The notes under the pieces are model-generated. The model searched no databases, was not told the origin of the DNA, and saw only the letters and a program-made list of their open reading frames with translations. Both the position numbers and the translations under genes were made by a program. From Candidatus Poribacteria bacterium (lineage in GTDB: Bacteria > Poribacteria > WGA-4E > WGA-3G), in NCBI GenBank assembly GCA_963663765.2, contig CAXXUA010000004.1:64001-128000 (forward strand): 64,000 nucleotides of DNA, given 5' to 3'. Of the stretch, positions 16,942-59,672 are shown in pieces. Within the stretch, counting starts at the first letter, position 1. Every line of letters starts with the position of its first letter.

Positions 16942-19431
16942 ATGAATAAAAAAACAATTCATATTTCTTTAACATTTTATATTTTTTTGTATGTTCTTCT
17001 AATAGTTATATCTGAAACAATTGCAGATCCTGTGGACATTCCTGATCCTGGCCTTCGCAAAGCATTAGAAGTGATGCTTAATAAGAAGCCGGGTGAAATA
17101 ATTACTGAGGCGGAAATGGGAGCGGAGAATTTCAAAATCCTTGGTGCACAGGAAAGGAATATTAACGATTTAACAGGACTTGAATTTGCAACCAACCTTC
17201 AATATGTATATCTTGAGTGGAATTCAATCTCAGATTTGTCACCGTTGTCAGAATTAACCAGTTTGGAACATTTACATCTTGAACATAACCAAATATCAGA
17301 CATTTCACCTCTCTCTAACTTTCCTGCACTAAAGAGTCTTAACATTTCATACAACAATCTTACAAGTCTGGAAGGTTTACCAGACCTAAGTTTGGTGTAT
17401 GCGCTCTTTTTACAACACAACCAAATAACCAGCATTAAACCTTTTATAGATCACACCGAATTCACCAGTGTCAATGACCCATATCGTGTTAATGTAGACT
17501 TGGAGGGTAACCCATTAGACGATGATTCTGCAAATATTTACTTTCCAATACTGTTTTTTGATAGAAGTATTGATGTATCTTTCACACTCACATTCATGAA
17601 GAAGGTTTCAGGTGATAAACAAACGGCATCCACCAACACGACGCTGCAACCGTTTGTCATCGAAGTATACAATTACAAAAATGAAAAACTATCGGGAGTC
17701 GCTGTGCGATTTGAACTTACTTCTGGTAGTGGTAGTTTTGTCAATGGTTACAAAAAATATGGTTACGAATCTTTTGATACGACAACTGATGCCGATGGCA
17801 AGGCTTCAGCAACACTAACTGCCGGATCAACAGCTGGCACTTACAAGATTTCTGTGTCTGCAACAATCGTGTATTCAAGTCATATTGGATCAGTAGGCAC
17901 TGGACCCTTTACTTTAACAATTAATGATCCCACACCAACTCAACAACAGGAAACAACACAACAAGAGCAAGAAGAAAATACACAACAACAGGAAACAACA
18001 CAAGAAGAGCAAGAAGAAAATATACAACAACAGGAAACGCAACAACAAGAAGAGGAAACGCAACAACAGGAAACAACACAACAAGTTAGTGAAGAACAAC
18101 AGGAAACAACACAACAACCTGAAACAAAGAACCTGTCTGAACCTGATCCAGATACACAATCTGAACAAAATCTGGAATCTGAGTCAGAACAACAGGAAAC
18201 AACACAACAAGTGAGTGAAGAACAACAGGAAACAACACAACAACCTGAAACAAAGAACCTGTCTGAACCTGATCCAGATACACAATCTGAACAAAATCTG
18301 GAATCTGAGTCAGAACAACAGGAAACAACACAACAAGATATTGAAGCACAACTATTGTCTAAATCTGAATCAGATATACAATCTGAACAACAACTTGAAC
18401 CGGAACCAGAAACAAATTATACTAAAATACCATTTGATTATCACTGGGAAAATGTTGGTAAAGTCGTTATTAGTGAGATTATGTTAGCGACGCTTGGAAA
18501 ATTTCCACAATGGATAGAGTTATACAATACTACTGATCAAGACATAGAGTTGAATGGGTGGAAAATCGTTGGAAGATATAAAGATGATTTAGATGCGGTA
18601 CACATATTAGAATCTCAAGTAATTACAATGTCAATAACAATAAAGGCTAAAGAAACAGTTTTATTAGTAAGTTATACATTACCAAATTTTAGGGACAGAG
18701 TTTCTGAAGGTTTTTCAAACAAAATCTGTTCTTTACAAGCAGCATCAATTAACCTTTGCAATTATAAGGGTCTCGTATTAGAATTACAAGATTCAGAAGG
18801 TAACCCTATTGATCGTATTGGCAATCTAAACGATAAGGACGAAATCGTATGGGAAATTCCTATACTTGTTCGAAATAAAAGAGTTTCTCTTATACGAAGA
18901 CTAAAATCGGTTCGATCACAAGAATATAATTTTTCATTTGGAATGAAAAAATTCGGTTGGTTTCCTGCAGAAAATGTAAAGGATTTGCGTGATAGTAATA
19001 ATCGTTATTTTTATGGCAGTTCAACTGATATCGGAACTCCAGGCTATAGAACAGAATCTGGTGAAATGTTACCTGTTACTTTATCATCGTTTCGTCCTCA
19101 ACTGAATCAAGATGGCCATGTTAGGTTGAGTTGGATTACTGAATCGGAATTAGAAAATGCTGGTTTCAATATCTTGCGTAGTGAGTTTAGAAAAGGTCCG
19201 TTTGTAAAAGTCAATCCGAAACTCATACAAGGTGCTGGTACGACGGGACAACGTAGTTTCTATTCCTGGACAGATACAACAGCAAAACCTGATGTTGAAT
19301 ATTACTACCGACTTGAAGATGTAGCTTTTTCAGGTGAACGACAAACCTTAACAACAAAACGTATAAAAGGAATGCTTTCAGCCAAGAATAGATTTACAAC
19401 GCAATGGGGACGACTAAAATCAAGACATTAA
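16942..19431 (+). CDS. Secreted internalin-like LRR protein with Ig-like domain, Q/E/T-rich linker, lamin-tail-like domain and TTxWGxLK C-terminal motif
   Basis: Signal peptide, IPDPGLR cap, LxxLxLxxNxIxD repeats, KVSGD.Q Ig-like motif, VVISEIM...QWIELYN, LPVTLSSF and FTTQWGRLK. Confidence 0.85.
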   Translation: MNKKTIHISLTFYIFLYVLLIVISETIADPVDIPDPGLRKALEVMLNKKPGEIITEAEMGAENFKILGAQERNINDLTGLEFATNLQYVYLEWNSISDLSPLSELTSLEHLHLEHNQISDISPLSNFPALKSLNISYNNLTSLEGLPDLSLVYALFLQHNQITSIKPFIDHTEFTSVNDPYRVNVDLEGNPLDDDSANIYFPILFFDRSIDVSFTLTFMKKVSGDKQTASTNTTLQPFVIEVYNYKNEKLSGVAVRFELTSGSGSFVNGYKKYGYESFDTTTDADGKASATLTAGSTAGTYKISVSATIVYSSHIGSVGTGPFTLTINDPTPTQQQETTQQEQEENTQQQETTQEEQEENIQQQETQQQEEETQQQETTQQVSEEQQETTQQPETKNLSEPDPDTQSEQNLESESEQQETTQQVSEEQQETTQQPETKNLSEPDPDTQSEQNLESESEQQETTQQDIEAQLLSKSESDIQSEQQLEPEPETNYTKIPFDYHWENVGKVVISEIMLATLGKFPQWIELYNTTDQDIELNGWKIVGRYKDDLDAVHILESQVITMSITIKAKETVLLVSYTLPNFRDRVSEGFSNKICSLQAASINLCNYKGLVLELQDSEGNPIDRIGNLNDKDEIVWEIPILVRNKRVSLIRRLKSVRSQEYNFSFGMKKFGWFPAENVKDLRDSNNRYFYGSSTDIGTPGYRTESGEMLPVTLSSFRPQLNQDGHVRLSWITESELENAGFNILRSEFRKGPFVKVNPKLIQGAGTTGQRSFYSWTDTTAKPDVEYYYRLEDVAFSGERQTLTTKRIKGMLSAKNRFTTQWGRLKSRH
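17940..18336 (+). repeat. Intragenic tandem repeats (QQETTQQ units; 126-bp duplication starting at 18064 and 18190)
   Basis: Two near-identical 126-bp (42-aa) units plus shorter CAACAGGAAACAACACAA units. Confidence 0.9.
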
Positions 19432-19471
19432 CCCAGTTGTATTTCAATGTTCCGACTACTACATAACCACG

Positions 19472-19499
19472 CGGACAATAAACAGTGATTTGTTGTCCG
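19472..19499 (+). terminator. Possible terminator hairpin after the LRR gene
   Basis: CGGACAATAAA-loop-TTTGTTGTCCG followed by AT-rich sequence. Confidence 0.35.
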
Positions 19500-19603
19500 T
19501 TATTATATTAATAAAATTCCGTGAACTTTTTTAGCATTTATATGACTAATAAGATGTAAATATCAATATCTTATGTTTATGAAAATTTGGAGATCTGATA
19601 AAA

Positions 19604-20935
19604 ATGAAGTTTATTGCACCAGTATTTATTTTTTTGATCCTTGTTTGTACTGCACTCCCTTGTTTTGGACATGGTGACGAGGAAGTTGCAGAAGATCAAG
19701 AGATGGTCAAATCAACCGGTTTATGGATATACAACGACCTTGAAAAAGGAATAACACAAGCTGAAGAGACAGGTAAACCGATGCTTGTTGTTTTCCGCTG
19801 AGTACCGTGAGTGTCCTGTCAAGGCATTGATGAACAGGTTGTTCGTCACGAAGAATCAATAAAAGATTTAATGGAACAGTTTGTATGTGTACGCATCGTA
19901 CAAGGTAACGGTATTGACCTATCTGTCTTTCAATTTGATTACGATCTCACTTTTGCAGCTTTTTTCATGAACGTTGATAAAACCATTTATGGTCGCTTCG
20001 GTACACGTGCAGAATACAGAAACGCTGCAAAGAATATATCTGTTGAAGGTTTTAAGCAAGCACTTGAAGCAGCACTTGAATTACACAAAGGTTATCCTGA
20101 CAACCAAGCAGTTTTAGCTGCAAAGACTGGTCCTGCTCCTTTAAAGAAAACACCAGAAGCATTTCCCGCATTACAACGATATCCATCTGATGTAAATTTA
20201 AGTAGACGTGTAGAAGGACAGTGTATACATTGCCACCAGATTGGTAAAGCACAACGTGAGATACATTGGTATGATAGGAAACCCGTACCAGATCAAGTGC
20301 TATATCCATTCCCAATGCCCGATGTGTTAGGGTTGAACTTTTCACCTAAACATCGTGCAAAAATTAGTAAGATTACACAAGGTTCGTCAGCAGAAAAAGA
20401 TGGTTTCAAACGCGCTGATGAAATTTTAACACTTGCTGGACAACCGATAATCTCAATTGCTGATATTCAATGGGTGTTACACCGTGCAAAAGACCACGAT
20501 GTATTACCAGTTACTGTGCTTCGTCATGGTGAAGAAATCAATCTTAATCTAACACTCAACAAAGGTTGGCGGAAAGCAAGCGACATCTCCTGGCGAACGA
20601 CAACCTATGAATTACGGCTTGTATCCTTGGGAGGTATGATACTTGAAGACTTGTCGAACACTGAACGCAAACAAAGCAATTTAAGCAATGATAATATGGC
20701 TCTGTTTGTTAAGGATTTGATGCGACGTGATCGTCGTGCAAATAGTCAGACAAATGCTCAAAAAGCGGGTATCCGACGAGGAGACATATTAGTCGGTTTC
20801 GGTGAACGAACTGATCGAGTCTCTGAAAGTAATATCATTGGATATGTGCTACAAGAACAAGCCAAAGCCAAGTCTTTACCTGTTAAAATCAACCGAAATG
20901 GAAATTTGTTAGATGTGAACCTATCACTTGAATAG
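19604..20935 (+). CDS. Thioredoxin-like/PDZ-domain selenoprotein (443 aa) with two in-frame UGA codons (UxxU) and a CxxCH motif
   Basis: ORFs 19604-19801 and 19811-20935 are in the same frame, joined by CGC TGA GTA CCG TGA GTG TCC TGT. The UGAs fall at the CxxC position after GKPMLVVFR. SECIS-like hairpin downstream. Confidence 0.85.
19829..19847 (+). promoter_or_regulatory. Putative bacterial SECIS element
   Basis: GATGAAC-AGGTT-GTTCGTC hairpin with a GGU-containing loop, about 27 and 36 nt downstream of the two UGAs. Confidence 0.6.
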
Positions 20936-20953
20936 AAAACGATTTTTCATGAG

Positions 20954-21146
20954 CAGGACTTACGCAGTTTTCATGATCCAATTAAGAATTAAGACGAAAA
21001 CGATGTAATTTTCAGCATTTTTTAGGTTTCCGGCGCGCTTACAAAGCACCAAATCAAGTAATCAACGGAATGAATACCTTATGGTATTCCCCGGGTATGA
21101 ATGCCATTTAGGCATTCCCCGCCTACCGTTAGGTGCGTAAGTCCTG
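20954..21146. mobile_element. MITE family A, copy 2, carrying a nested hairpin micro-insertion
   Basis: Same TIRs; 5-bp duplication ATGAG; extra 71 nt at 21050-21120. Confidence 0.9.
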
Positions 21147-21178
21147 ATGAGAATTATAACTACATTAAAAGGATTGAC

Positions 21179-22375
21179 ATGTTACGTAAAATAACTCTTA
21201 TACTGGTTTTGTTTTCGATAGCTTGTATCGTTGCAATCACAATTAGTGCAATTGAATCTGCAGAAGAAGTTGATGCGGATAAAACAACTGAAATTGCTAA
21301 GATTTCAAAAGAACCGAACATAGTTGCTTTGTCAAAAGTTATGAAAACATTCCGTGATTCATTAACTGAAGAACTGCTTGTCGCTGCCTCCTATCCGCTT
21401 GGACATAAGGAATCGTATTCTTGGTCTAATCTACCAGCATCAAGGAACAGTGATCGTGGTGGTATTGAATTTGCTAAGTTGTCTTTAGATCAATTAACAC
21501 TTTTTCATAAAGTATTAGATGCATTCTTGAGTGATGAAGGTTTGACCAAAGTATCTCTGATAACAAAAAGAGCAAAAACAACACTCAGCGAAATTAAGAC
21601 AGATTTTTGGAATTCACGTCCCTACTTTATTGCCCTGTTTGGTAACCCAGAGACAGATGGTTCTTGGGGATTCCAACTGGATGGACATCATTTAGCATTG
21701 AACTTTCTGGTGCATGGGGATGAGGTTACTATTGTTCCGAATCATCTCGGGACACAACCCACAATCATAGACGGCGCGATAGTGCTTGAAGACGAAAGAA
21801 AACTTGCATTAGCTCTACTCAATAGTCTTGACACCAATCAGAAAACAAAGGCAATACAAAAAAGCACTCGTCGCGGCTTGAAGGTAGGACCTGGAAGCAG
21901 AACTGACCCTTACCTGAATTATGATTACTCAAACTTTGTTGGTGTTGGTTTGAAAGCATCTGAAATGGATGATGCGCAACAACAGAATCTCCGGAAACTG
22001 ATTAAAGCCTATGTCTACAATCTTGAAACTGAGTTTGCAGATATCTGGATGAAAGACATTGACGTTGAACTTGACGACACCTATTTTGCTTGGATCGGCG
22101 GAACAACAGAAAACGATTCCATTTATTATCGTGTGTTCAATCCAGCGGTTTGGATTGAATTTAACGACGAAGCAAGGGGTAGTGATGGTAAACCGAATCA
22201 TATTCATACGATCACCAGAGCACCCAACGGTAAAGACTACGGTATTTTTGCATTGAATAGAGGTCCAAGAACACTATTAGAACACTATGCAATGGCAGAT
22301 CATCATAAATCAAGTAAAGTGTTTTTTGATTATACAACCTCCGATTTATCAGTAAAAAAAGTGAAGGAGCATTAA
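21179..22375 (+). CDS. DUF3500 domain secreted protein
   Basis: Y...FG.P...WG....GHHL..N, Y.AW.G, YYR and NHIH motifs. ATG 21179 follows AAAAGGA and precedes a signal peptide; the ORF-track start lies inside the MITE. Confidence 0.8.
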   Translation: MLRKITLILVLFSIACIVAITISAIESAEEVDADKTTEIAKISKEPNIVALSKVMKTFRDSLTEELLVAASYPLGHKESYSWSNLPASRNSDRGGIEFAKLSLDQLTLFHKVLDAFLSDEGLTKVSLITKRAKTTLSEIKTDFWNSRPYFIALFGNPETDGSWGFQLDGHHLALNFLVHGDEVTIVPNHLGTQPTIIDGAIVLEDERKLALALLNSLDTNQKTKAIQKSTRRGLKVGPGSRTDPYLNYDYSNFVGVGLKASEMDDAQQQNLRKLIKAYVYNLETEFADIWMKDIDVELDDTYFAWIGGTTENDSIYYRVFNPAVWIEFNDEARGSDGKPNHIHTITRAPNGKDYGIFALNRGPRTLLEHYAMADHHKSSKVFFDYTTSDLSVKKVKEH

Positions 22376-23013
22376 TGTTTGATCAAGTTTTGTCAGAAGT
22401 TGAGCAACAGTGTCGTGAAGAACGGGTTCCAATGTTGGGACCAGATAAAGCAAAGTTACTTGCGACTACTGTTGAAAAGGCTAAACCCTCTCTCATTGTA
22501 GAGTGTGGTACAGCTATAGGTTACTCTGGTTTATGGATATTGCGTGTTTTGAAGACTTTAGGTTTAGGTCGTTTGATCACAGCAGAGATAAATCCTGAAA
22601 GCGCACAACGAGCAAGAGAAAACTTTAAAAAAGCTGGTGTAGCTGACCTTGTTGATTCACGAATTGGAGATGCAGCAGAAATATTAACAACAATTCAAGA
22701 ACCTGTGGATTTTTTGTTCCTTGACAACAACAAGGACGGCTATTACGCTTGTTTTAATGCAATTGAACCACAGTTAACCAGTCCTGCAACGATAGTTGCA
22801 GACAATGTTGGAAGAGCAGATCAGATGGCGGATTATCTGGAACATGTCCGATCTAACTACGAGTCAGAAACCCATTGGTTTGAAAGACGTCGAAGACGCA
22901 GACCTGATAGCGGTGGGGAAGCAAATCGTGGACCACGTAGACGAGACGGTGATGAAGGTAACAGAGGTCCACGCAGACGTGACGGAATGGAAGTTAGTAT
23001 TTTTCGTCGTTGA
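22375..23013 (+). CDS. Class I SAM-dependent O-methyltransferase
   Basis: VECGTAIGYS, GDA, DFLFLD and ADNV motifs; overlaps the upstream stop (TAATG). Confidence 0.9.
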   Translation: MFDQVLSEVEQQCREERVPMLGPDKAKLLATTVEKAKPSLIVECGTAIGYSGLWILRVLKTLGLGRLITAEINPESAQRARENFKKAGVADLVDSRIGDAAEILTTIQEPVDFLFLDNNKDGYYACFNAIEPQLTSPATIVADNVGRADQMADYLEHVRSNYESETHWFERRRRRRPDSGGEANRGPRRRDGDEGNRGPRRRDGMEVSIFRR

Positions 23014-23023
23014 AGTGAAAATA

Positions 23024-24466
23024 TTATTCCTTTTTTGCACAAGGAACAATTATGGAATCCACCATACCGTGTAAGATTTTCTTATCTGCGGGACAGACAG
23101 TTGCTTGGATTCCACCTAATTTGACTGTATCTCCTACGACAAAATAGTATGGACGGAGTAGCGGTCGACACGGCATCTCCTGCATCGCTTCTGTTTCAAA
23201 GTCATAGTATTGCATCCGAACACGTTTTGCAGTGTGAAACTGCTGCATCACGTGAGGTGTATTTTCAAAGGATGCAAGACTATCATTAATTGCAGTTTCC
23301 CACTCCTCTGTAGGTAGATCATGTCCGATTTTCACACCACGACTTCCCCATGCGAGTTCTGAAAAACCTGATGGTTTTATGACTAATTCACGTTGCTTTT
23401 GTGTAACGGTACTTAGTTGCTTCCAATCGGTTAAAGCGATTCCGTCAATATCCAGGTTTGGAATAACTGCGTGTGGTGGTAATGGACGAGGATCGAGAAT
23501 CCAAGTTTGTGGTATCACTTCCTGAAGAAAAGAATGAGACTTCTTCCCAAGCTGACGTTGCCAGAACGGTTGTAGAGATGAATGGTGAAAGAGAGCAAGA
23601 CATAACTTTTCTTCCAAATATGCTTTTGGTGGTGGTGTCATCATAACGGTGCGTTTCTTTGCACTATAGAAAATCAGTTCTACTTTTGGAATGTTCGGTA
23701 GATCAAACATTTCATAAAATCGGTATACAACATCAACTTTATATTTTCCGTGATTATCTTCAACTAAGAGTCCCTCTTCAGTAAAAGCGATTTCAGGTGT
23801 TTTGAGTGCAACTGTTCTAAGTCCAGCATCACAAAGAGCATCCGCAAGCCATATCATCTCTGGATGATAGTCCTCAGATTCATCTGACACCACAATCGCA
23901 AGGGTAGCATCCTTTTTCTTTGCTAAAGCGCGAATCATCTCGGCAAATCCAACCACCATACCATCTTTACCCCCGATGATGTCATATCCGAGTTTTGTAT
24001 ATAGTCGTGCCAGACAACCTGTTCCACCGATGAAGCCTGGTATAGAGTCCAACTCAGTTATTACGCGTTCCTCATCGGAAGTGGGTAATATATCTGGTCG
24101 CATGACACCGGGAAGTTGTGTTTTAAAGCGGTTCATTCGTCCTTGCTGGATGACACTTTCCGGTTTGCCAATATCTAAGTATTCTGCGACCCAATCAGGT
24201 TGAATACCTCGAACACTTTGAGAATAAAGGAGATTACATGCGCGGTAAAATGTTAAAAGGTGAGGACCGAGTTCTTCTAACCAGTTCAGTTCTGACTCAG
24301 TTAGCCAGAACGGTTCGGGTGAGATTCGCCATGAGGTATTGCAATCGTGATGGACTGCCCTTTTTTCTGCGGTAAATAATTTCTCTTTCGGTATTTCGTC
24401 ATTAATTAACAGACATAACTGTTTTGCATCCAAACTATAACTCCCAAATGAAAATAATGTTGTCAA
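23024..24466 (-). CDS. ATP-grasp-like peptide ligase (glutathionylspermidine synthase/circularly permuted ATP-grasp-like)
   Basis: RPD...TELDS.PG, VYRFYE, VIKPSG...WGSRGV..G motifs. Confidence 0.55.
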   Translation of the reverse strand: MTTLFSFGSYSLDAKQLCLLINDEIPKEKLFTAEKRAVHHDCNTSWRISPEPFWLTESELNWLEELGPHLLTFYRACNLLYSQSVRGIQPDWVAEYLDIGKPESVIQQGRMNRFKTQLPGVMRPDILPTSDEERVITELDSIPGFIGGTGCLARLYTKLGYDIIGGKDGMVVGFAEMIRALAKKKDATLAIVVSDESEDYHPEMIWLADALCDAGLRTVALKTPEIAFTEEGLLVEDNHGKYKVDVVYRFYEMFDLPNIPKVELIFYSAKKRTVMMTPPPKAYLEEKLCLALFHHSSLQPFWQRQLGKKSHSFLQEVIPQTWILDPRPLPPHAVIPNLDIDGIALTDWKQLSTVTQKQRELVIKPSGFSELAWGSRGVKIGHDLPTEEWETAINDSLASFENTPHVMQQFHTAKRVRMQYYDFETEAMQEMPCRPLLRPYYFVVGDTVKLGGIQATVCPADKKILHGMVDSIIVPCAKKE

Positions 24467-24472
24467 TTATCC

Positions 24473-26056
24473 TTAGAGAATAACCTGCTTGACAGAATCT
24501 ATTTTATCCTGTGCAGCGATTGACTTGATGACATTGCGCGGAACGAAACTATCCACATTAATAAGGGTCAACGCAACATCTTCAATGCGGGATCGACCCA
24601 CCGTCATATCCGCTATGTTTATATTGTGTTCTCCCAAGATGGTACCCATAAGTCCAATAATCCCAGGTTGGTCTCGATTGCTAATGAGGAGAATATGTCC
24701 TTCAGGAGTTGCATTTAGATCAAGTTGGTTGATGCGAACAATGCGTATCTCTTTGCGTCCGAAGGTTGTCCCAGCAAGGATTGTATCACCTTTATCGGTT
24801 GTAACGGTGACTGTGATCAAGTTTGAATAATCAGTCTCTGCATCGCTCTTGGTCTGTGTCACGGAAATTCCGCGTTGTTTAACCAAGAAAGGAGCATTCA
24901 CATAATTTACCTCTGATATCACAGGTGTCAATAGACCTTTCTGTAATGCGACTGTAATCGGTTTAACATCCTCTTGTTGAAAAAGAGTTCCACTATATTG
25001 AATTTTGATTGTAGATATTTGACCTTCAACTATTTGCGCGTGGAAACTACCAATTTTCTCTGCAAGTTCAAGATAAGGACCCAAGATGTCATACATTCTC
25101 GGATCAATTTTGGGTTGATTGACAGCATTAGCGACAGGTTTACCTTGAAGTGCGTTAATGACTTGTTGTGCGACTTCAATGGATACATGTTCTTGTGCTT
25201 CGGTTGTGGATGCACCAAGGTGAGGTAGAGCGAGGACGTTATCCAATTCAAGGAGTGGACTGTCAATTGCGGGTTCGTCTTCAAACACATCAAGCGCAGC
25301 ACCAGCGATCTGTTTATCTTTCAATGCAGCGTAGAGTGCAGTTTCTTCTATGATACCGCCACGTGCACAATTGATGATTCTCGCGGTAGGTTTCATGAGT
25401 TTTATTTCAGATTCACCAATGCTGTGGTAGGTTTCTGCGGTAAGAAGTGCATGAACAGAGATAAAATCAGATTCACGAAAGAGCGAATCACGGTCAACGA
25501 GACGCACACCCATTTTATCAGCTGAGTTTGCGGTAATGAATGGGTCAAAAGCAATGAGTTTCATCTCAAATGCATTTGCACGTTTTGCGACTTCACGTCC
25601 AATTTTCCCAAGACCAACAGTTCCAAATACTTTACCGTAAAGTTCAACGCCAATATAATCATTTCGTTCCCAAATACGATCTCTAAGTGATATTCCTGCA
25701 GGAACAAGGTTTCGTGCTAATGCTAGCAACATTGCGATGGTGTGTTCCGCTGCTGCGATTGTATTACCATCAGGAGTATTTACAACTAAAATGCCGCTTT
25801 TTGTAGCTGCTTCAACGTCGATATTATCTACACCGACTCCTGCACGTCCGATTACCTTAAGCTGCTTTGCTGCATCAATAACATCTGCTGTTACTCTTGT
25901 CCCACTTCTAATCAATAGTGCATCATAATCCGCAATACGTTTTAACAAATTCTCATGTGACAATTCTAACTCAACATCTACCTTGAAGTCACCATTGTTG
26001 ATTAAGACATCTAATCCTTGCTGCGATAGCAAATCACTAATCAGCACTTTGTTCAT
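24473..26056 (-). CDS. serA: D-3-phosphoglycerate dehydrogenase
   Basis: GRAGVGVDNID, GLGKIG, INCARGG, PHLGAST and C-terminal ACT domain; ATG 26056 follows GGAGG. Confidence 0.95.
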   Translation of the reverse strand: MNKVLISDLLSQQGLDVLINNGDFKVDVELELSHENLLKRIADYDALLIRSGTRVTADVIDAAKQLKVIGRAGVGVDNIDVEAATKSGILVVNTPDGNTIAAAEHTIAMLLALARNLVPAGISLRDRIWERNDYIGVELYGKVFGTVGLGKIGREVAKRANAFEMKLIAFDPFITANSADKMGVRLVDRDSLFRESDFISVHALLTAETYHSIGESEIKLMKPTARIINCARGGIIEETALYAALKDKQIAGAALDVFEDEPAIDSPLLELDNVLALPHLGASTTEAQEHVSIEVAQQVINALQGKPVANAVNQPKIDPRMYDILGPYLELAEKIGSFHAQIVEGQISTIKIQYSGTLFQQEDVKPITVALQKGLLTPVISEVNYVNAPFLVKQRGISVTQTKSDAETDYSNLITVTVTTDKGDTILAGTTFGRKEIRIVRINQLDLNATPEGHILLISNRDQPGIIGLMGTILGEHNINIADMTVGRSRIEDVALTLINVDSFVPRNVIKSIAAQDKIDSVKQVIL

Positions 26057-26186
26057 AGTTTTAAATCCTCCCGCCAAAGCAGCTTTGAGCATTTGCAATT
26101 GTAGCACTTAAGGTTAGCGGTGTCAATATATTTTCAAAGATTACTTGTGGTTTTTCTGGTATTAGCAACAAAGTTTTATGTTGCAT

Positions 26187-27083
26187 TCATTTTGGATCGC
26201 AATAAGAATCGGACTTTAAATCAACCTTTTTAACGTTTACTTCATCCCCTATTTTCAATCCATAGCGAGCACTTGCATTGCCTAAATTTACTGAAATCTC
26301 TAATAGGCCGAAACTACTAATGATAGCTAAAGGTTCACCCGGTTTCGACTCGGAATAGGAACTGTTTAGTTTCTGTAATCTGACTGATCCTGCTATAATT
26401 TCGTAACAAAGTTGGTATTGTTGTTTGTATAGTTTTCCTGTTGTGGATTCATTTGAAGAACCAGATAAAAGAAACTGTGCAAGAAAATCCTCTGAAATAT
26501 TTGTAATCAAATTCCCAAAACTGTCGACTTTGATGACTTCACCTGTCAAAGTGGTTTCATCTATATTTACCATTGGTACAGTAAATCGGACAAATTTACA
26601 TAATGGAGTTCCAAAATCAGTAAGGGGTACACCGAGGGATAGATGAGCTGCAATAGGTGCAAAAATATCTCTACCATGGAAGGTGTTACTGACTTTAGGT
26701 AATAAGTAGTCAGTGTTTTGTATAGTAACAGCATTGGGTTTGTTAATGTTTTCAGTATCAGTTTTGTGTAGCAGATAACTTAGTACACCGTTGTTAGGAC
26801 AAACAAATAATGCGTTATCTGTTTGACACACAATTGCTTGTCGATTGCTGCCGACACCAGGATCTACGACAATGACATGTATTGTGTCTTCTGGGAAGAA
26901 ACGGTATGAGGAATGGATTGATAATGCTGCTTGGTGTATATCATGAGGCGGAATCGCGTGCGTCAGATCAACAACTTTGACATTTGGATTTATGTTTAGG
27001 ATGACTCCTTTCATGACACCGACATACACATCGCTTGTACCAAAATCGGTTGTTAGTGTAATGACGCGTGGAGATTTGTTCAT
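26187..27083 (-). CDS. SAM hydroxide adenosyltransferase/chlorinase-fluorinase family (DUF62)
   Basis: ITLTTDFG, VVDPGVGS.R, TFHGRDIFAP and D.FGNL motifs. Confidence 0.92.
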   Translation of the reverse strand: MNKSPRVITLTTDFGTSDVYVGVMKGVILNINPNVKVVDLTHAIPPHDIHQAALSIHSSYRFFPEDTIHVIVVDPGVGSNRQAIVCQTDNALFVCPNNGVLSYLLHKTDTENINKPNAVTIQNTDYLLPKVSNTFHGRDIFAPIAAHLSLGVPLTDFGTPLCKFVRFTVPMVNIDETTLTGEVIKVDSFGNLITNISEDFLAQFLLSGSSNESTTGKLYKQQYQLCYEIIAGSVRLQKLNSSYSESKPGEPLAIISSFGLLEISVNLGNASARYGLKIGDEVNVKKVDLKSDSYCDPK

Positions 27084-27108
27084 ACTGATGTGCTATACCG
27101 TGATTACC

Positions 27109-27909
27109 TTATAGATTTTGCTGCATCCATGCAAAACTTTTTTGTTGACCTGTTCCATCATTTTCTCTACCTTCATATTCACAGCACCAGACGCCATCAT
27201 AACCCGCATCACGTAGACATTGGATTGCTTTCTTGAGATCAATTTCACCTTCTCCCAATGCTTCCCCGCGATAGTTACCCCGCGAACCAGTACCATCTTT
27301 TAGATGTGTGTGTATGGTATAAGGTGCGATGATTTCGTAGAACCTACCGACTGTCTCTAAGTCGTGACCAGCCCATCGGTAGTTCATTGTGTCCATATTC
27401 GCACCGACATGTTTAGAACCCACCCGTTCAAAGAGTTCTACTTGTAAATCACCATCATTGGTGACCAATCCGTGATTGTCAACTGCCAAATAGATATCTT
27501 CCTGTTCAGCGAATTCAAGACATCGGGTTAAGCATCCTGCCATAGCTTCAACCCATCGGTTCTTGGGAACAGAATCCTTCATAGAGCCGCCTTCTGTACG
27601 CAGTACAGAAGTACCAAGTATTTTAGCTATTTTTGCGATACGTTCCATCCTTTCAACCTGTGCGGTTATAGTTTCTTCCTCTAACACCACAAAGTCGTTA
27701 CCCGCACCAAGAGCGGAAACCTGCAACCCATAGGATTCAACCTGTTTTCGTACGGCTTCAGCATTAGTTTCTGGTTCAGATGCATCTGCATTCCAGACTG
27801 TTCCTATTGCAAGTTCAACGTAACCAAATCCTGTATCACTACAAAACTTGAGAAAGTCGTCAAGTGAATTACCAGCATAGTTATAATGGATAAGACCAAG
27901 TTTAGACAT
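27109..27909 (-). CDS. Sugar phosphate isomerase/epimerase (AP endonuclease 2 TIM barrel)
   Basis: LAVDNH, D..N, HTHLKD, G.G.ID and GYDG...EYE motifs; start placed at MSKLG. Confidence 0.85.
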   Translation of the reverse strand: MSKLGLIHYNYAGNSLDDFLKFCSDTGFGYVELAIGTVWNADASEPETNAEAVRKQVESYGLQVSALGAGNDFVVLEEETITAQVERMERIAKIAKILGTSVLRTEGGSMKDSVPKNRWVEAMAGCLTRCLEFAEQEDIYLAVDNHGLVTNDGDLQVELFERVGSKHVGANMDTMNYRWAGHDLETVGRFYEIIAPYTIHTHLKDGTGSRGNYRGEALGEGEIDLKKAIQCLRDAGYDGVWCCEYEGRENDGTGQQKSFAWMQQNL

Positions 27910-28027
27910 ATTATTGTTTCCTATATTAAAAAGTTTTTGGAATTTAATGCGTGAATATGATATAATACATTTATAAAAGAGAAGAGTCAAGCAGTTTATA
28001 TCTTTTGAAAATAGATTAGGGAGAACA

Positions 28028-29164
28028 ATGGAGAAATATAATCCTCTAACTGATCCGAAATTACATGAGATCTATGAAAAAGTAATAGCGAAAGAACGTC
28101 TATCGTTTGAGGATGGGTTAGCACTTTACGAGAGTCCAGATATAAATGGTGTCGGTTTAATTGCGAATTATGTTCGTGAACGGTTAAACGGGAATGTTAC
28201 ATTCTACAATATCAATCAACATATAGATTACTCCAATGTGTGTATCCTACATGCCCGTTGTCATTTTTGTGCGTTTGCACGGAAGAACATGCAAACAGAA
28301 GGTGCTTGGGAGATGAGCGTAGATGAGTTTTTGGATAAAGCCATGTATTCTATAGAACATGGATGTACCGAAATTCATAGTGTCGGGGGATTGCACCCAA
28401 AATTACCTTTTGACTACTATTTAAAGATTATTCGGGGACTCAAAGAACGGATGCCAGAAGTCCATTTAAAGTTCTTCACTGCGGTTGAAATACATCACTT
28501 TTCGCGTATATTTAAGATGTCAATAGAGGAAGTTTTAAAACAACTCCGTGAAGTAGGTTTGGATTCATTGCCGGGAGGTGGAGCGGAGATATTTGCTGAA
28601 GAAACCCGTGAGAAGATATGTCCTGGAAAACTCAGTGCAGAAGGATGGTTAGAGATACACGATATTGCACATAGTTTGGGTATTCCTACAAACGCAACCA
28701 TGCTCTATGGTCACCTTGAAACAAACGCGGATAGAGTTGACCATCTCATCAGGTTGCGTGAACAACAGGATAAATCTGGTGGGTTTGTAACATTTATTCC
28801 TCTTGCGTTCCATCCTGCGAACACTCGGATGGCATACTTACCCTCAACCACTGGATTAACTGATTTACGAAACATTGCAGTTTCTCGTTTGCTGTTGGAC
28901 AACATACCCCACATAAAAGTATACTGGATTATGACCGGATTGAAAACTGCACAGATTGCTCTCAGTTTCGGTTCAGATGATATTGATGGTACAGTAACAG
29001 AAGAAAAGATTACCCACATGGCAGGTGCTGATACACCGGAAGCTGTATCAGTTGAAGCACTTACACGTCTGATTGAAGAAGCAGGATATGTTCCCGTTGA
29101 ACGCGACACACTTTACAATGAAATAATTCGAGAGGGTCATCAGTGGTACAGAAAAGCCGCATAA
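28028..29164 (+). CDS. mqnE: Aminofutalosine synthase (radical SAM, menaquinone futalosine pathway)
   Basis: GGLHP, PGGGAEIF, NATMLYGH.E, FIPLAFHP and NIPHIKVYW motifs; adjacent to mqnA. Confidence 0.88.
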   Translation: MEKYNPLTDPKLHEIYEKVIAKERLSFEDGLALYESPDINGVGLIANYVRERLNGNVTFYNINQHIDYSNVCILHARCHFCAFARKNMQTEGAWEMSVDEFLDKAMYSIEHGCTEIHSVGGLHPKLPFDYYLKIIRGLKERMPEVHLKFFTAVEIHHFSRIFKMSIEEVLKQLREVGLDSLPGGGAEIFAEETREKICPGKLSAEGWLEIHDIAHSLGIPTNATMLYGHLETNADRVDHLIRLREQQDKSGGFVTFIPLAFHPANTRMAYLPSTTGLTDLRNIAVSRLLLDNIPHIKVYWIMTGLKTAQIALSFGSDDIDGTVTEEKITHMAGADTPEAVSVEALTRLIEEAGYVPVERDTLYNEIIREGHQWYRKAA

Positions 29165-29958
29165 GAATTGGTGCCGTGTCATTTTTGAACACGAAACCCC
29201 TGATTTATCCGCTCATGAGTTGTGACTTTCAGTCAGAAGAAATATCCCTCAGTTTACATTTACCCAGTCAACTTGCTTCAATGTTAGAAGATAATGAATT
29301 AGAAGTGGGTTTGATTCCAATTGTTGAATACTTTCGTGCAAATGATCGCGGAGATAGTTATCGTATTCTTCCAGGTATTTCAATCGCATCGCGCGGAAGT
29401 GTCTTAAGCATTCAATTGTTTAGTCATGTGCCGGTTCATGACATACAAAAAATTGCATTAGATACAAGTTCAAGATCATCAGTTGCTCTATTGAATATCT
29501 TGCTTGTTGAGAAATATCAAATATCCCCAGTTTTTGTTTCTTGTGAACCATCGGTAAATCCTACCACTGTTGATACTGATGCGGTTTTACTCATTGGTGA
29601 TGCAGCCCTCAAGAATCTGGGAGTAACAGAATATAGTTATGATTTAGGGTATGAATGGCATGAACTCACAGGACTACCTTTCGTCTATGCGTGTTGGGTT
29701 GCAAGGGAAAAAGTGGGTCTCGGAAACATCCCAAAATTGCTTACAGATGCAAAAGATATTGGTGTTAAGCAGATACCTGAAATAGCACAAATTGAATCAG
29801 AAAAACTGGGTTTACCAGAAGGTTTATGCAAGAGGTATTTGCAAGAACATATCCACTATGACTTGGATGAAACAGCAATTGCGGGTCTTGAACGATTTTA
29901 CGAACTTGCTGTGAAAAACAAACTTATCAAACCATCTGGGAACTTGCATTTTGTGTAA
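29143..29958 (+). CDS. mqnA: Chorismate dehydratase
   Basis: IGAVSFLN.KPL, SRSS..L, LLIGDAAL and DLG..W..LTGLPFVYA.W motifs. Confidence 0.92.
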   Translation: MVQKSRIRIGAVSFLNTKPLIYPLMSCDFQSEEISLSLHLPSQLASMLEDNELEVGLIPIVEYFRANDRGDSYRILPGISIASRGSVLSIQLFSHVPVHDIQKIALDTSSRSSVALLNILLVEKYQISPVFVSCEPSVNPTTVDTDAVLLIGDAALKNLGVTEYSYDLGYEWHELTGLPFVYACWVAREKVGLGNIPKLLTDAKDIGVKQIPEIAQIESEKLGLPEGLCKRYLQEHIHYDLDETAIAGLERFYELAVKNKLIKPSGNLHFV

Positions 29959-30006
29959 TATGAACAGGTCATATAAAATTAATATTTTAAATATTGGACA
30001 AGAATA

Positions 30007-30492
30007 ATGAATTCCGCTGAAGAAACTAACAGTGCAGACGACTTTACTCAGAAGTTTTTGGATTTTTTAAAAGAATCAGGCCTCCGTTTGACACAAAAGC
30101 GGTTGGATGTGGTGAACCAAGTTTTTGTATTCCCTGGTCATTTCCAAACCGAAGACATTTTGGTGCAGATGCGTCAAAATGGATATAATGTCTCGCGTCC
30201 GACAATCTACCGCACCCTTCCATTGCTTGTTCAAAGTGGATTACTTACTGAGTTTATTGATGCGCATAAGAATACACGGTATGAGACTATTCACTCTTTG
30301 AAAGAACACGCCCACCTTATCTGCCTTCGGTGTGGACAGATAGCCGAATTCAAAGAACCTCAGATAGATGCATTGCAAAAAGCTGTATGTGAAGCCCATC
30401 AGTTCAGAGCTGTTCGCTTCAGAAACGAGATCATTGGTTATTGTACTGAATGCCAAGAGGAAATAGATAATCAGGATAATCCGGACGTATAA
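30007..30492 (+). CDS. fur: Fur-family transcriptional regulator
   Basis: GLRLT.KR, SRPTIYRTL, H.HLIC..CG and C-terminal CxxC. Confidence 0.88.
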   Translation: MNSAEETNSADDFTQKFLDFLKESGLRLTQKRLDVVNQVFVFPGHFQTEDILVQMRQNGYNVSRPTIYRTLPLLVQSGLLTEFIDAHKNTRYETIHSLKEHAHLICLRCGQIAEFKEPQIDALQKAVCEAHQFRAVRFRNEIIGYCTECQEEIDNQDNPDV

Positions 30493-30507
30493 TTTCACTC
30501 CATCCAA

Positions 30508-31338
30508 ATGAACCTAAGTTGCCTACCTGTCACTCTCTATAACGACATCTTCTCAGGAAAAAGATCTGTTGCTGATTGGATCCAATTCGGTGCTGAATTG
30601 GGATTAGATGCAGTTGATTTTAGCATCAAGTTTTTTCCCCAACGTGATACAGAAGCGGTTAAGCAGATTCGATCAATTCTTGAAAAACACAGAATACGTG
30701 CTTGTATGTTGGCGTGTTATTCTGATTTCACGCATCCAAATAAGACACAAAGGGATCAAGAGCTGTCTAATCTCAAAGTTGACATCTCCCTTGCAAAGGC
30801 ATTGGGAGCAGAGTTTGTTAGGGTGACTGCAGGGCAAAACCATCCGGGTATTGAACGTAAAAAGGGAGTTCAATGGGTAACTGATGGAATGAGACAAGCT
30901 CTTGATGTAGCAGAAGATTATGGCATCACGCTTGCTTTTGAGAATCATACTATAGGTGCACCGTGGCAATATTGGGATTTTTCTCAACAGTCAGAGATAT
31001 TTATAGAAATTCTTGATGGACTTTCCGACACACCGCTGGGTGTGTGTTTTGACACAGCAAACCCACTTGTCCTGAAGGAGGATGTGCTAAAACTATTGGA
31101 CAAAGTGATTGATCGTGTTGTAGTGTTACATGTCTTTGACCTAAGCGAGATAGGTTCATTTGAACCTGTTTGTATTGGGACGGGGGCAGCTCCAATACCT
31201 GAAGTTTTTAACCGCATGCAAATAGTGAATTTTGATGGGTGGGTTAGTATTGAAGAAGCAAGTCGTCAAGGTCGTCAAGGATTTGAGCAAGCAATTAGGT
31301 TTGTAAGACAAGCATGGATAGATGTAGCAACCGTGTGA
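30508..31338 (+). CDS. Sugar phosphate isomerase/epimerase family protein
   Basis: LAFENH, FDTAN, LHV.D, G.G and FDGWVSIE motifs. Confidence 0.85.
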   Translation: MNLSCLPVTLYNDIFSGKRSVADWIQFGAELGLDAVDFSIKFFPQRDTEAVKQIRSILEKHRIRACMLACYSDFTHPNKTQRDQELSNLKVDISLAKALGAEFVRVTAGQNHPGIERKKGVQWVTDGMRQALDVAEDYGITLAFENHTIGAPWQYWDFSQQSEIFIEILDGLSDTPLGVCFDTANPLVLKEDVLKLLDKVIDRVVVLHVFDLSEIGSFEPVCIGTGAAPIPEVFNRMQIVNFDGWVSIEEASRQGRQGFEQAIRFVRQAWIDVATV

Positions 31339-31366
31339 TTCTGTGTTTTGGTAAATAGTTGGAGTA

Positions 31367-33010: not shown

Positions 33011-33029
33011 GGTTTCACCAAAAATAAGG

Positions 33030-33086: not shown

Positions 33087-33092
33087 AACGGA

Positions 33093-33218: not shown

Positions 33219-33298
33219 AATATTTTCAAGATTGAGGATTTTTACCTGTGTTCAATATTAAGAAAATCTTAGGCAAATCATTTCCAAGTAGAATATTC

Positions 33299-43356: not shown

Positions 43357-43421
43357 TTGTAGGTCCAAATCAACGGTATGAATCCCTTATTGGCATTCAT
43401 ACCGTTGATTTGGACCTACAA
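43357..43421. repeat. Perfect 27-bp-arm palindrome (GTAG...CTAC REP containing micro-insert sequence)
   Basis: TTGTAGGTCCAAATCAACGGTATGAAT-11nt-ATTCATACCGTTGATTTGGACCTACAA. Confidence 0.9.
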
Positions 43422-45610: not shown

Positions 45611-48077
45611 GTAGGCGTTGTTTGTAAGCGCGCTCTTGGGACTTGATGTGCCAGCGCGCTTACAAAGCACGCCTGCAGTTGGGGGCGCGCTTACAAAGCA
45701 CGGCTTGCAGTGGTAGGCGCGCGGACAAAGCACGCTTGCAGTTGGGGGCGCGCTTACAAAGCACGGCTTGCAGTTGGGGGCGCGCTTACAAAGCACGGCT
45801 TGCAGTTGGGGGCGCGCTTACAAAGCACGCCTGCAGTTGGGGGCGCGCTTACAAAGCACGCTTGCAGTTGGTGGCGCGCGGACAAAGCACGGCTTGCAGT
45901 TGGGGGCGCGCTTACAAAGCACGCCTGCAGTTGGGGACGCGCTTACAAAGCACGCCTGCAGTTGGGGGCGCGCTTACAAAGCACGCCTGCAGTGGGGTAT
46001 GCCAGCAGGTGAGGGCGGGGATGGCGCGCTTACAAAGCACGCCTGCAGTTTTTAGGGAGTATGGAGCGCGCTTACAAAGCACGCCTGCAGTGGGGTACGC
46101 CAGCAGGTGAGGGCGGGGATGGCGCGCTTACAAAGCACCAAATCAACGGTATGAATGCGCGTATGGCATTCCCCGCCAGCAGTTTTTAGAGAGTATGGAG
46201 CGCGCTTACAAAGCACGCCTGCAGTGGGGTACGCCAGCAGGTGAGGGCGAGGATGGCGCGCTTACAAAGCACCAAATCAACGGTATGAATGCGCGTATGG
46301 CATTCCCCGCCTGCAGTTTTTAGGGAGTATGGAGCGCGCTTACAAAGCACGCCTGCAGTGGGGTACGCCAGTAGGTGAGGGCGGGGATGGCGCGCTTACA
46401 AAGCACCAAATCAACGGTATGAATGCGCGTATGGCATTCCCCGCCTGCAGTTTTTAGGGAGTATGGAGCGCGCTTACAAAGCACGCCTGCAGTGGGGTAT
46501 GCCAGCAGGTGAGGGCGGGGATGGCGCGCTTACAAAGCACGCATGCAGTTTTTAGGGAGTATGGAGCGCGCTTACAAAGCACGCATGCAGTGGGATATGC
46601 CAGCAGGTGAGGGTGGGGATGGCGCGCTTACAAAGCACCAAATCAACGGTATGAATGCGCGTATGGCATTCCCCGCCTGCAGTTTTTAGGGAGTATGGAG
46701 CGCGCTTACAAAGCACGCCTGCAGTGGGGTATGCCAGCAGGTGAGGGCGGGGATGGCGCGCTTACAAAGCACCAAATCAACGGTATGAATGCGCGTATGG
46801 CATTCCCCGCCTGCAGTTTTTAGGGAGTATGGAGCGCGCTTACAAAGCACGTCTGCAGTGGGGTACGCCAGTAGATGAGGGCGGGGATGGCGCGCTTACA
46901 AAGCACACCTGCAGTTTTTAGGGAGTATGGAGCGCGCTTACAAAGCACGCCTGCAGTGGGATATGCCAGTAGGTGAGGGCGGGGATGGCGCGCTTACAAA
47001 GCACGCCTGCAGTTTTTAGGGAGTATGGAGCGCGCTTACAAAGCACGCATGCAGTGGGGTACGCCAGTAGGTGAAGGCGGGGATGGCGCGCTTACAAAGC
47101 ACGCCTGCAGTTTTTAGGGAGTATGGAGCGCGCTTACAAAGCACGCATGCAGTGGGGTATGCCAGCAGGTGAGGGCGGGGATGGCGCGCTTACAAAGCAC
47201 CAAATCAACGGTATGAATGCGCGTATGGCATTCCCCGCCTGCAGTTTTTAGGGAGTATGGAGCGCGCTTACAAAGCACGTCTGCAGTGGGGTACGCCAGT
47301 AGATGAGGGCGGGGATGGCGCGCTTACAAAGCACGCCTGCAGTTTTTACGGAGTATGGAGCGCGCTTACAAAGCACACCTGCAGTGGGGTATGCCAGTAG
47401 GTGAGGGCGGGGATGGCGCGCTTACAAAGCACGCCTGCAGTTTTTAGGGAGTATGGAGCGCGCTTACAAAGCACGCATGCAGTGGGGTATGCCAGCAGGT
47501 GAGGGCGGGGATGGCGCGCTTACAAAGCACCAAATCAACGGTATGAATGCGCGTATGGCATTCCCCGCCTGCAGTTTTTACGGAGTATGGAGCGCGCTTA
47601 CAAAGCACGCCTGCAGTGGGGTATGCCAGCAGGTGAGGGCGGGGATGGCGCGCTTACAAAGCACGCCTGCAGTTTTTACGGAGTATGGAGCGCGCTTACA
47701 AAGCACGCCTGCAGTGGGGTATGCCAGCAGGTGAGGGCGGGGATGGCGCGCTTACAAAGCACCAAATCAACGGTATGAATGCGCGTATGGCATTCCCCGC
47801 CTGCAGTTTTTACGGAGTATGGAGCGCGCTTACAAAGCACACCTGCAGTGGGGTATGCCAGTAGGTGAGGGCGGGGATGGCGCGCTTACAAAGCACGCCT
47901 GCAGTTTTTAGGGAGTATGGAGCGCGCTTACAAAGCACGCCTGCAGTGGGGTATGCCAGCAGGTGAGGGCGGGGATGGCGCGCTTACATAGCACGCCTGC
48001 AGTTTTTGGGAGTATGGAGCGCGCTTACAAAGCACCAAATCAACGGTATGAATGCCATTTAGGCATTCCCCGCCTAC
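45611..48077. repeat. REP-derived tandem array 2 (about 47 direct copies plus one inverted copy)
   Basis: Core GCGCGCTTACAAAGCACGCCTGCAG. 31-32-bp monomers at 45654-45990, then 42+56-bp dimers; nine cores carry a 36-nt insert. Confidence 0.95.
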
Positions 48078-59463: not shown

Positions 59464-59672
59464 AACGACTTGTGCCAGTTAACCAATTGTTTATATAGTT
59501 ATCACATATATTAGGTTTATAATGCACACATATCGTCCCTACCAAATCAACGCCAAATGCGCGTATGGCATTTGTCGGGACTGAAGATCGTTTCAAACTA
59601 TGAAGTACACCTGCAAAACGTCATGTTTATGTGAAACAATGATTAACATATTGTTATTTAGCACAACTCGTT
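59464..59672. mobile_element. MITE family E (TIR AACGASTTGTGC)
   Basis: 12-bp TIR with one mismatch; 6-bp duplication ATCCTT; a similar end occurs at 45330. Confidence 0.65.

Follow-up and report, generated by a model that had tools for sequence, protein, structure and literature searches.

The stretch of DNA analysed here, referred to as the window, comprises 64,000 nucleotides (nt) of contig CAXXUA010000004.1 from a Candidatus Poribacteria bacterium, a symbiont of sponges, the genome of which amounts to 6.35 Mb on 15 contigs with about 41% G+C. At positions 21050-21120 it holds a 71-nt composite of very small repeat units that share an invariant head, a hairpin and a C-rich tail and occur in this genome in more than 480 copies. 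The composite resides in a MITE (miniature inverted-repeat transposable element), where it splits a hairpin resembling REP1, one of several repetitive extragenic palindromes (REPs) of this genome, and is made up of a piece of the head, a whole unit of the type termed A and an A hairpin without head (Table 1). Both hairpins are predicted when the composite is folded as single-stranded DNA (-13 kcal/mol, z -3.55). The host MITE belongs to a family of 130 genome copies with a core of 118 nt when empty, and the same composite architecture is found at the same site in further copies. At the orthologous site of the related genome G016 the entire MITE is missing and the flanking genes abut, overlapping the join by 4 nt. 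Searches of positions 20900-21200 against Rfam at E-values up to 10 returned nothing meaningful, and the units match no Rfam family. Contigs from four public read runs covering positions 18500-33800 end at 20980 and restart at 21118 and were set aside as uninformative on polymorphism, as were read joints skipping 37-74 nt, which stem from paralogues and are not assignable to the locus.

All types of unit have in common the head CAAATCAACG, a hairpin of 7-8 bp and a C-rich tail. Type A measures 35 or 36 nt and is arranged in the order head, G, TAT bulge, stem GAATGCC, a loop of 4-5 nt, GGCATTC and CCC; its 405 simple copies (244 of 36 nt and 161 of 35 nt) fall into 49 stem-loop variants. Types B and E are 34 nt long. 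A B unit consists of the head, CCAAATGC, GCGTATG, GCATTTGG/T and C, and 78 copies were counted with the stricter of the B patterns, while stems of types B' and E read CCGAATGC / GCATTCGG and TCAGAAGC / GCTTCTGA, respectively. There is one hairpin per unit and the hairpins fold as predicted, leaving CAAATCAACG(G) as the unpaired conserved part; a GTAG or CGTC tag is absent.

Copies were also picked by the head alone. Six different stems were found behind it, all of them perfectly complementary: GAATGCC/GGCATTC (301 copies), CAAATGC/GCATTTG (68), GAATGCT/AGCATTC (20), GAATACC/GGTATTC (18), CAGAAGC/GCTTCTG (15) and CGAATGC/GCATTCG (12). Uncompensated combinations are few, with six copies of GAATACC/GGCATTC and two of GAATGCC/GGTATTC. 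An alignment of B and E units (15 rows, 14 of them distinct) has four of eight pairs changed on both sides and 92.9% of cells pairing, as compared to 27-51% for slid structures, and its covariation score was reached by none of 500 shuffles. Likewise, three of seven pairs are changed on both sides among 44 distinct A sequences, and none of 500 shuffles reached the number of doubly changed cells; the outer four A pairs are uninformative in this respect because they were fixed by the pattern used for selection. The covariation claimed in a first-pass annotation of the window is thus borne out by the census as well as by both alignments, with independent compensatory events being few and confined to a handful of subfamilies. 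An invariant head combined with covarying stems points to selection acting on the unit itself.

With respect to insertion sites, units were excised, the 9+9 flanking bases were joined and the resulting 18-mers were sought uninterrupted elsewhere. Of the distinct A contexts, 111 of 220 have such an uninterrupted counterpart, as do 22 of 27 B/E contexts. The tabulation of filled versus empty sites that the first-pass annotation had called for accordingly provided precise pairs in many unrelated contexts: the loop of type B (CCAAATGCGC^GTATGGCATT, 37 filled and 57 empty), the REP1 site of the MITE (TACAAAGCAC^GCCTACCGTT, 31 and 155), REP1 in arrays (...GCAC^GCCTGCAG, about 23 and 594), REP2 (TCCCTAC^GGGAC, more than 50 and 467) and GTAGGTC^GGGTAGAG (3 and 33). 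The junction behind a unit, ATTCCCC^GGGTATGAAT (CCCC^GGGT), was found empty 101 times and GGGAG^GGGTTT 50 times. Type E is inserted at AAAATC^GGGGTTGAAAACCCC, and hosts in other species include GGGAATC^GGAGTTCCC, GCACTC^GGGAGTGC, GGGGCAC^GGGACCCC, CGGATTTCAC^GGAT and CAGGATT repeats. Clean insertions are thus present in at least eight unrelated host repeats that have C^G alone in common. In the source genome, C precedes the unit in 104 of 120 contexts and G follows it in 109 of 120; the corresponding figures for other species are 50 of 64 and 61 of 64. Behind B/E units, GGG comes next in 32-35 of 36 contexts. Left flanks of unrelated hosts (GCAC, GCGC, CTAC, GGTC, AATC, ACTC and CCCC) share their last C only. 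The precise interruption of intact repeats, originally ascribed to a target AC^G, is therefore upheld with the target broadened to C^G in general. Insertion points lie in loops, in either stem arm or at the foot of hairpins and have no structural position in common.

Terminal inverted repeats and target duplications are lacking, just as had been noted before, and the junction is ambiguous by one C at most. Although CpG is self-complementary, units are almost always inserted in one orientation, with ratios of 210:1 in REP1, 121:0 in REP2, 62:1 in the B loop and 5:0 in REP4. For REP2, 602 uninterrupted copies of GTCCCTACGGGAC exist genome-wide, while 121 copies are filled in the same orientation as the unit at 59543 and none in the reverse one. 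An A unit is nested in the loop of a B unit 62 times.

The core motif AATCAACG occurs 14 times in the window as compared to 2.99 expected occurrences, a number reached by none of 100 shuffles, and lies inside units in 13 cases, the exception being located at 16180. Genome-wide, 1043 matches stand against about 194 expected from length alone; 493 of them are followed by GTATGAAT and 142 by CC[AG]AATGC. A heads lie outside crude open reading frames (ORFs) in 433 of 493 cases. The units of the window and its other repeat features are compiled in Table 1.

Table 1. Units, host repeats and further features of the 64-kb window (^ marks an insertion point).
Feature	Positions	Strand	Composition or context
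Tandem repeats, periods 18-126 nt	17936-18411		CAACAACAGGAAAC-rich; look like a repetitive coding segment
Host MITE, ~193 nt	20954..21146	+	Inverted ends CAGGACTTACGCA (20954-20966) and TGCGTAAGTCCTG (21134-21146); REP1-like hairpin split by the composite
71-nt composite	21050..21120	+	Flanked by CAAAGCAC (21042-21049) and GCCTACCG (from 21121); REP1 site CAAAGCAC^GCC
Composite, first piece: head piece	21050-21059		CAAATCAAGT
Composite, second piece: whole 35-nt A unit	21058-21092		GTAATCAACG-GAAT-GAATACC-TTAT-GGTATTC-CCC (loop TTAT)
Composite, third piece: A hairpin without head	21093-21120		GGGTAT-GAATGCC-ATTTA-GGCATTC-CCC (loop ATTTA)
REP1 tandem array (array 1)	33856-34355		Hairpin GCGCGCTTACAAAGCACGCC, period 46-52 nt
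tRNA gene	39920-39991	-	Sole Rfam match of the window at gathering threshold
Palindromic form, 61 nt, perfect	43359..43419	.	GTAGGTC + CAAATCAACGGTATGAAT + 11-nt centre + ATTCATACCGTTGATTTG + GACCTAC
Small palindromic element, first copy	45567-45605		Ends ATGAAGATTAATTTATTAAT... / ...ATTAATAAATTAATCTTCAT; the two copies inverted around array 2
REP1 tandem array (array 2)	45654-48035		Hairpin GCGCGCTTACAAAGCACGCC, period 31 then 98/134 nt
Eight identical 36-nt A units	46139..47798	+	Loop GCGTATG; each at CAAAGCAC^GCC in array 2
First four of these	46139-46174, 46273-46308, 46407-46442, 46639-46674	+	
Last four of these	46773-46808, 47201-47236, 47531-47566, 47763-47798	+	
36-nt A unit	48036..48071	+	Loop ATTTA; in final REP1 of array 2; fold -6.9 kcal/mol, z -3.75
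Small palindromic element, second copy	48085-48125		As first copy
GGGAATCGGAGTTCCCTCCTAC-type REP array	48331-48473		48 nt x 3
One 41-nt stretch, three times	56606, 57859, 58855		Spacing ~1.0-1.25 kb; suggests a tandemly repeated gene or domain
34-nt B unit	59543..59576	+	CAAATCAACG-CCAAATGC-GCGTATG-GCATTTGT-C; splits REP2 at GTCCCTAC^GGGAC
CRISPR-like array	62676-63963, to window end		~37-nt repeat GTTTCAATCTCGTAATCGAGATACTTCTGATTTCAAG, period 72-74 nt, at least 14 copies

The nine A units of array 2 and the B unit in a different REP, which the first-pass annotation had listed, were recovered at their positions. In array 2, however, the period of 134 nt when filled (98 nt when empty) is part of higher-order tandem repeats of 134-428 nt with 95-100% identity, such that its nine copies represent mostly products of tandem amplification and not nine separate insertions. 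The palindromic form at 43359-43419 differs from the other units in that head and 5' arm pair with their own reverse complement within a GTAGGTC/GACCTAC hairpin (DNA fold -27.3 kcal/mol, z -13). Such inverted doublets exist at just two loci genome-wide, the common multimer being a tandem run of direct copies. REP1 itself was counted 1123 times in the genome. The small palindromic element that flanks array 2 is found elsewhere (C5:805602 and others) in loops of REP1 (TTAC^...^CAAAG) and of A units, one copy being reduced to its two ends with 24 nt in total. The CRISPR-like array at the end of the window has no match to any Rfam CRISPR-DR family at gathering score.

The 130 MITE copies allowed us to ask whether filled sites go back to one event or to many. 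In 60 copies, which are empty, the end motifs lie 118-119 nt apart; the rest are longer by 36, 44, 60, 71 nt and more, and units reside at two sites, GCGC^GCTTAC (site 1) and GC[AG]C^GCCTAC (site 2). On a tree of 122 backbones, calculated with the hairpin region excluded and after eight copies had been dropped by length or anchor filters, the 38 copies filled at site 2 require 30 changes, with a mean of 29.8 after shuffling, and the 21 copies filled at site 1 require 15 as compared to 18.4. A backbone single-nucleotide polymorphism kept out of the alignment as a control needs nine changes versus 32.6 after shuffling. As the control follows the MITE tree while occupancy is scattered, a single inherited insertion does not account for the units. 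Descent of all copies from one ancestral insertion, the outcome that the first-pass annotation had named as speaking against mobility, is therefore not what is observed, and neither is its second such outcome, a lack of covariation or of a target consensus. Either units have been gained or lost recurrently in MITE copies, or short conversion tracts have moved them from copy to copy.

Inserts at REP1 sites come in a series of lengths: 36 nt (one head, one hairpin), 44 nt (two heads, one hairpin), 60 nt (a unit with an inner hairpin 24 nt longer), 63 nt (one head, two hairpins), 71/72 nt (two heads, two hairpins) and larger combinations of 95, 98 nt and more. Three or four heads with one hairpin are also present, and headless hairpins are nearly always located behind another unit. 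Since the numbers of heads and hairpins vary independently in a way that nesting of whole units cannot produce, slippage must contribute. This bears on the composite at 21050-21120, which had been taken for one variant nested within another. Nesting is common elsewhere and is plausible here too, and for the inner variant at 21058-21092 a discrete inserted unit is favoured by its haplotype, characterised by a T in second position, the stem ACC/GGT and the loop TTAT, which recurs with other outer hairpins and in other hosts. For this particular copy, however, slippage of modules is an equally good reading because composites of 44 nt, of 63 nt and with three to four heads exist.

Outside the source genome, the units are distributed at least family-wide. 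The exact 18-mer AATCAACGGTATGAATGC, present in 421 copies in the source genome, was detected at 3-276 copies each in 23 out of the remaining 24 congeneric species and in none of 16 genomes from three other families of the order. An 11-mer that includes the preceding CA yielded 19-508 matches per genome in all 37 other genomes of the genus, with 0-9 in controls. The sister genus has a different base before the head and hence appeared nearly empty by this 11-mer; searched with a pattern of head plus hairpin, all four of its genomes contained units (44, 52, 73 and 147 copies, control 0), while one genome of another family contained none. A scan of public genomes with the first 20 nt of the unit returned at least 80 loci, and among the matches listed 77 were assigned to Candidatus or uncultured Poribacteria and three to 'uncultured bacterium'. 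Dominant loops differ between lineages, with ATTTA and TTTT in the source genome and TTAT, GTAT and TTAAT in the sister genus. Genes flanking units in G006, G017 and G022 share 70-76% identity with the source genome, yet identical 36-mers are present in these species; a 60-nt block of REP2 plus B unit is 96-98% identical in the relatives G006 and G017. Intergenic contexts of units differ between species even at 85-89% gene identity. Identical 36-mers despite diverged genes and contexts indicate that copies were placed after the species had split, from masters with an unchanging head and covarying stems. This in turn needs either exchange between co-resident symbionts or, in each lineage, a machinery by which head and hairpin are read.

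Taken together, we lean towards the view that all units belong to a single non-autonomous family of mobile DNA, 34-36 nt in length and mobilised in trans, with an invariant single-stranded head, a hairpin that differs between subfamilies but stays complementary, and a C-rich tail. The tiny structure-dependent mobile unit of the first-pass annotation persists in this view insofar as the unit is very small, its hairpin is structurally constrained and it behaves as mobile DNA; at the target, on the other hand, no shared structural position was recognised but just C^G. A protein supplied in trans would recognise head plus hairpin, probably on single-stranded DNA, and would cut at both ends of the unit (C^CAAAT... 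and ...CCC^G). The excised piece would then be joined, always the same way round, to another C^G step in a reaction of the peel-and-paste type that involves no terminal inverted repeats and duplicates one target base at most. Targets would mainly be GC-rich extragenic repeats, i.e., REPs and MITEs, and in addition the junction behind an existing unit, resulting in tandem runs, and the loops of sister units, resulting in nesting. Copy numbers then increase secondarily by self-amplification of host repeats (REP arrays and MITE transposition), by slippage of two modules, the head with 8 nt and the hairpin with 27/28 nt, and by recombination between paralogous copies.

A number of observations weigh against mobilisation of this kind, and some of them favour the rival explanation that no dedicated transposition exists and that each host repeat received a small number of illegitimate founder insertions, which host-repeat amplification, module slippage and short-tract gene conversion between paralogous copies then spread. 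MITE insertions at site 1 carry a linked T>C 3 nt away, and loop subtypes in the MITE are specific for the site, with TTTT at site 1 and ATTTA at site 2. Conversion automatically maintains orientation and position, both of which may therefore follow from homology-driven copying. Two contexts resemble recombination through similar sequence (ATTCCCCGCCTAC vs. GTTCCCTCCTAC), and the independent head and hairpin numbers as well as the tandem origin of the array-2 copies also fit this explanation. Comparison of orthologous sites at 21050, 43368 and 59543, and of two 20-kb unit-rich regions with G016 and G045, revealed no filled/empty pair at any orthologous locus; whole host repeats (MITEs or REPs) come and go. 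REP3 and GGAGATC...GCCTACAG (no empties) are unclean host contexts, and composites at head sites are out of register by one base, with G at both junctions where C and nothing would be expected of a simple insertion at AAC^GG. Homology-driven copying explains spread inside one host repeat family but not clean jumps between hosts alike only in C^G, of which there are at least eight here and different ones in other species. Nor does it sit easily with 36-mers that remain identical between species whose genes share about 70-76% identity, with loop subtypes that are specific for the lineage and with the selection on the unit that an invariant head and covarying stems require. We consider spread in the absence of any dedicated transposition unlikely.

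The orientation of A units in the genome may likewise be held against trans-mobilisation, at least via a single strand. It was associated with neither coding GC skew nor the strand of genes (67/70 vs. 67/97, p 0.16), and no bias relative to the direction of flanking genes was seen (72 to 76 in ++ gaps, 64 to 77 in -- gaps). A mechanism acting on single-stranded DNA of the lagging strand would predict a bias, though skew in this genome is weak; the test was run on a 15-contig assembly in which the origin was not located. At the 100-kb scale, GC skew is weak and patchy throughout the genome.

The search for the mobilising enzyme adds further counter-evidence. It concerns primarily the possibility, raised in the first-pass annotation, that the unit is a REP-like or IS200/IS605-like substrate of a resident HUH Y1 enzyme, either a REP-associated tyrosine transposase (RAYT) or TnpA, acting on a folded single strand. 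The anatomy would fit, with a hairpin and a conserved 5' tail, no inverted ends or duplication, seamless empty sites and one orientation, and PF01797 (Y1_Tnp) has matches in 27 of 31 genomes of the genus and six in the source genome. Four of these six, however, represent tnpA-tnpB copies of IS200/IS605 elements (C5:688634, C3:287718, C5:550867 and C5:353059) whose ends, beginning with TTAACACTATTCCGTC... on the left, have nothing in common with the unit. In one of these copies the element breaks off behind tnpA, and a further transposase-like ORF comes next. A RAYT-like gene at C4:621661-621987, outside the window, lies between long arrays of the GGGAATCGGAGTTCCCTCCTAC-type REP, and a partial one at the end of contig C10 adjoins a REP1 array. 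Searches by tblastn with both RAYT-like proteins were swamped by REP-derived matches, the core region matching C4, C10 and one short piece of C5 only. Among the Y1/RAYT loci inspected in 20 genomes, 34 from the Y1 search and 18 further RAYT-like ones, none is closely bracketed by the unit on both sides; head matches are one-sided, or two-sided but far off (L141, L145 and L148). Where four Y1 loci were read base by base, the genes were flanked by their own REPs, different for each class, with units inside those REPs (L111 and L116); this location within REPs beside RAYT-like genes, shared by the gene on C10, is a point for such an enzyme. In G001, G010 and G024 (one contig), on the other hand, the best Y1_Tnp E-values are 0.1-0.6, without any match passing the cut-off, and 90, 104 and 115 exact copies are present. 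Moreover, left flanks agree in the last base C only and not in a target of 4-5 nt, no replication-strand bias was found and the GTAG or CGTC tag is missing. The recognisable Y1 genes are consequently poor candidates for the enzyme, and the HUH Y1 explanation as a whole appears improbable.

The transposase gene flanked by head and hairpin ends that the first-pass annotation had proposed to look for was not encountered at any inspected locus, and no long element with unit ends (CAAATCAACGG... / ...ATTCCCC) was found in the genome. This is of importance for a third alternative, according to which the unit is what a larger element left behind, as a footprint or after collapse, or else is mobilised by a REP-targeting recombinase of the IS110 type. 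IS110-family elements insert into REPs in one orientation, and the two full-palindrome loci, with the head on both sides, resemble paired ends. The genome, which is 97.8% complete, contains no match to PF01548 (IS110), though, inserts at REP1 sites of up to 381 nt hold no coding element with unit ends, and the 76 units that have no closing arm close by all proved to be variants of 60 nt, decayed copies or units broken up by another small palindrome, with no gene enclosed by any of them. We regard this alternative as very improbable. Among the paralogue families of the genome, no gene family is enriched beside units. By eye, in a crude ORF set without Pfam scan, 30 of 193 WD40-like paralogues lie near units (background 522 of 4442), and roughly 50 sulfatase-like paralogues were likewise counted by eye; sulfatases and spurious ORFs running through REP arrays are also found beside units. 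Readings of the unit as an integron attC site or as a product of Xer, Cas1 or retro-elements were rejected because the cut points, duplications or arrays they predict were not seen.

Trans-mobilisation of the unit, the reading that we prefer, could be extended to the more specific, and in our opinion doubtful, proposition that the unit is the complete substrate of an undescribed transposition system. A family-conserved enzyme belonging neither to HUH-Y1 nor to IS110 would then transfer a single-stranded hairpin of 35 nt into C^G, perhaps in the form of a minicircle joined CCCC-CAAAT. The sequence CCCC-CAAATC, present 34 times in this genome, is by itself not diagnostic of such circles, as tandem copies produce it. 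If the proposition were true, no smaller self-defined mobile DNA would be known for which the anatomy of recognition is established, and the small dispersed repeats (SDRs) of cyanobacteria would be joined by a second, independent case.

No published description of the units was found in the accessible parts of the literature on Poribacteria repeats or by full-text search for the 18-mer. Comparison with known systems reveals partial likenesses. REPs and the hairpin-forming REP doublets (REPINs) are extragenic, high-copy hairpins of 20-40 nt with a conserved unpaired 5' motif that probably act as single-stranded hairpins (PMC3116915, PMC3733652). The unit resembles them and is itself a short extragenic high-copy imperfect palindrome, and REPs and RAYT-like genes coexist with it in Poribacteria genomes. 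REPs, however, carry a GTAG or CGTC tetranucleotide at one hairpin foot, as described in PMC3733652, whereas the unit lacks this tag, brackets no RAYT gene, rarely forms inverted doublets (two loci) and is located inside REPs of several other families, not beside them. IS200/IS605 elements and their palindrome-associated derivatives share with the unit the absence of inverted ends and duplications, seamless excision sites, insertion specific for strand and orientation, and dependence on hairpins; the unit differs in possessing a single hairpin rather than one per end and a length of 36 rather than more than 100 nt, in lacking a fixed left target of 4-5 nt and in being unrelated to the ends of the resident IS200/IS605 copies. 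MITEs such as Correia, RPE and Nezha are likewise non-autonomous, abundant and sometimes nested, but possess terminal inverted repeats and target duplications at lengths of 70-300 nt. The unit has neither and rides inside MITEs. Together with the REPs and MITEs they invade, the units remodel intergenic DNA in Poribacteria at a pace that exceeds the divergence of genes, and they break short-read assemblies at exactly their positions.

Mobile DNA below about 50 nt is, to our knowledge, almost undocumented. The closest described analogue of the unit appears to be the SDRs of heterocystous cyanobacteria, and in this respect the first-pass statement that the unit is not a described element needs qualification. 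SDR4-6 of Nostoc punctiforme and relatives are likewise very small and non-coding, are precisely inserted in other repeats and have no known transposase. Elhai and colleagues are said to have described them in 2008 as 21-27 nt long and nesting in each other, and we know of no explanation of their mechanism since then, nor of any other described case below 50 nt. The two differ in phylum, Poribacteria not being cyanobacteria; the unit is longer (34-36 nt), and highly iterated palindrome 1 (HIP1), between the third and fourth bases of which SDR5 is precisely inserted according to a 2015 paper (PMC4390886), occurs just 29 times in the source genome. The unit has, in addition, a defined anatomy, with 10 invariant nt in the head, covariation in the hairpin, a tail of C and C^G as its target. 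Our analysis thus supports a very small mobile repeat with an unusually explicit grammar, an independent family in a second phylum that is inserted in one orientation, and hundreds of copies per genome over about 100 sequenced relatives render the question of how such repeats move, posed by the SDRs, testable.

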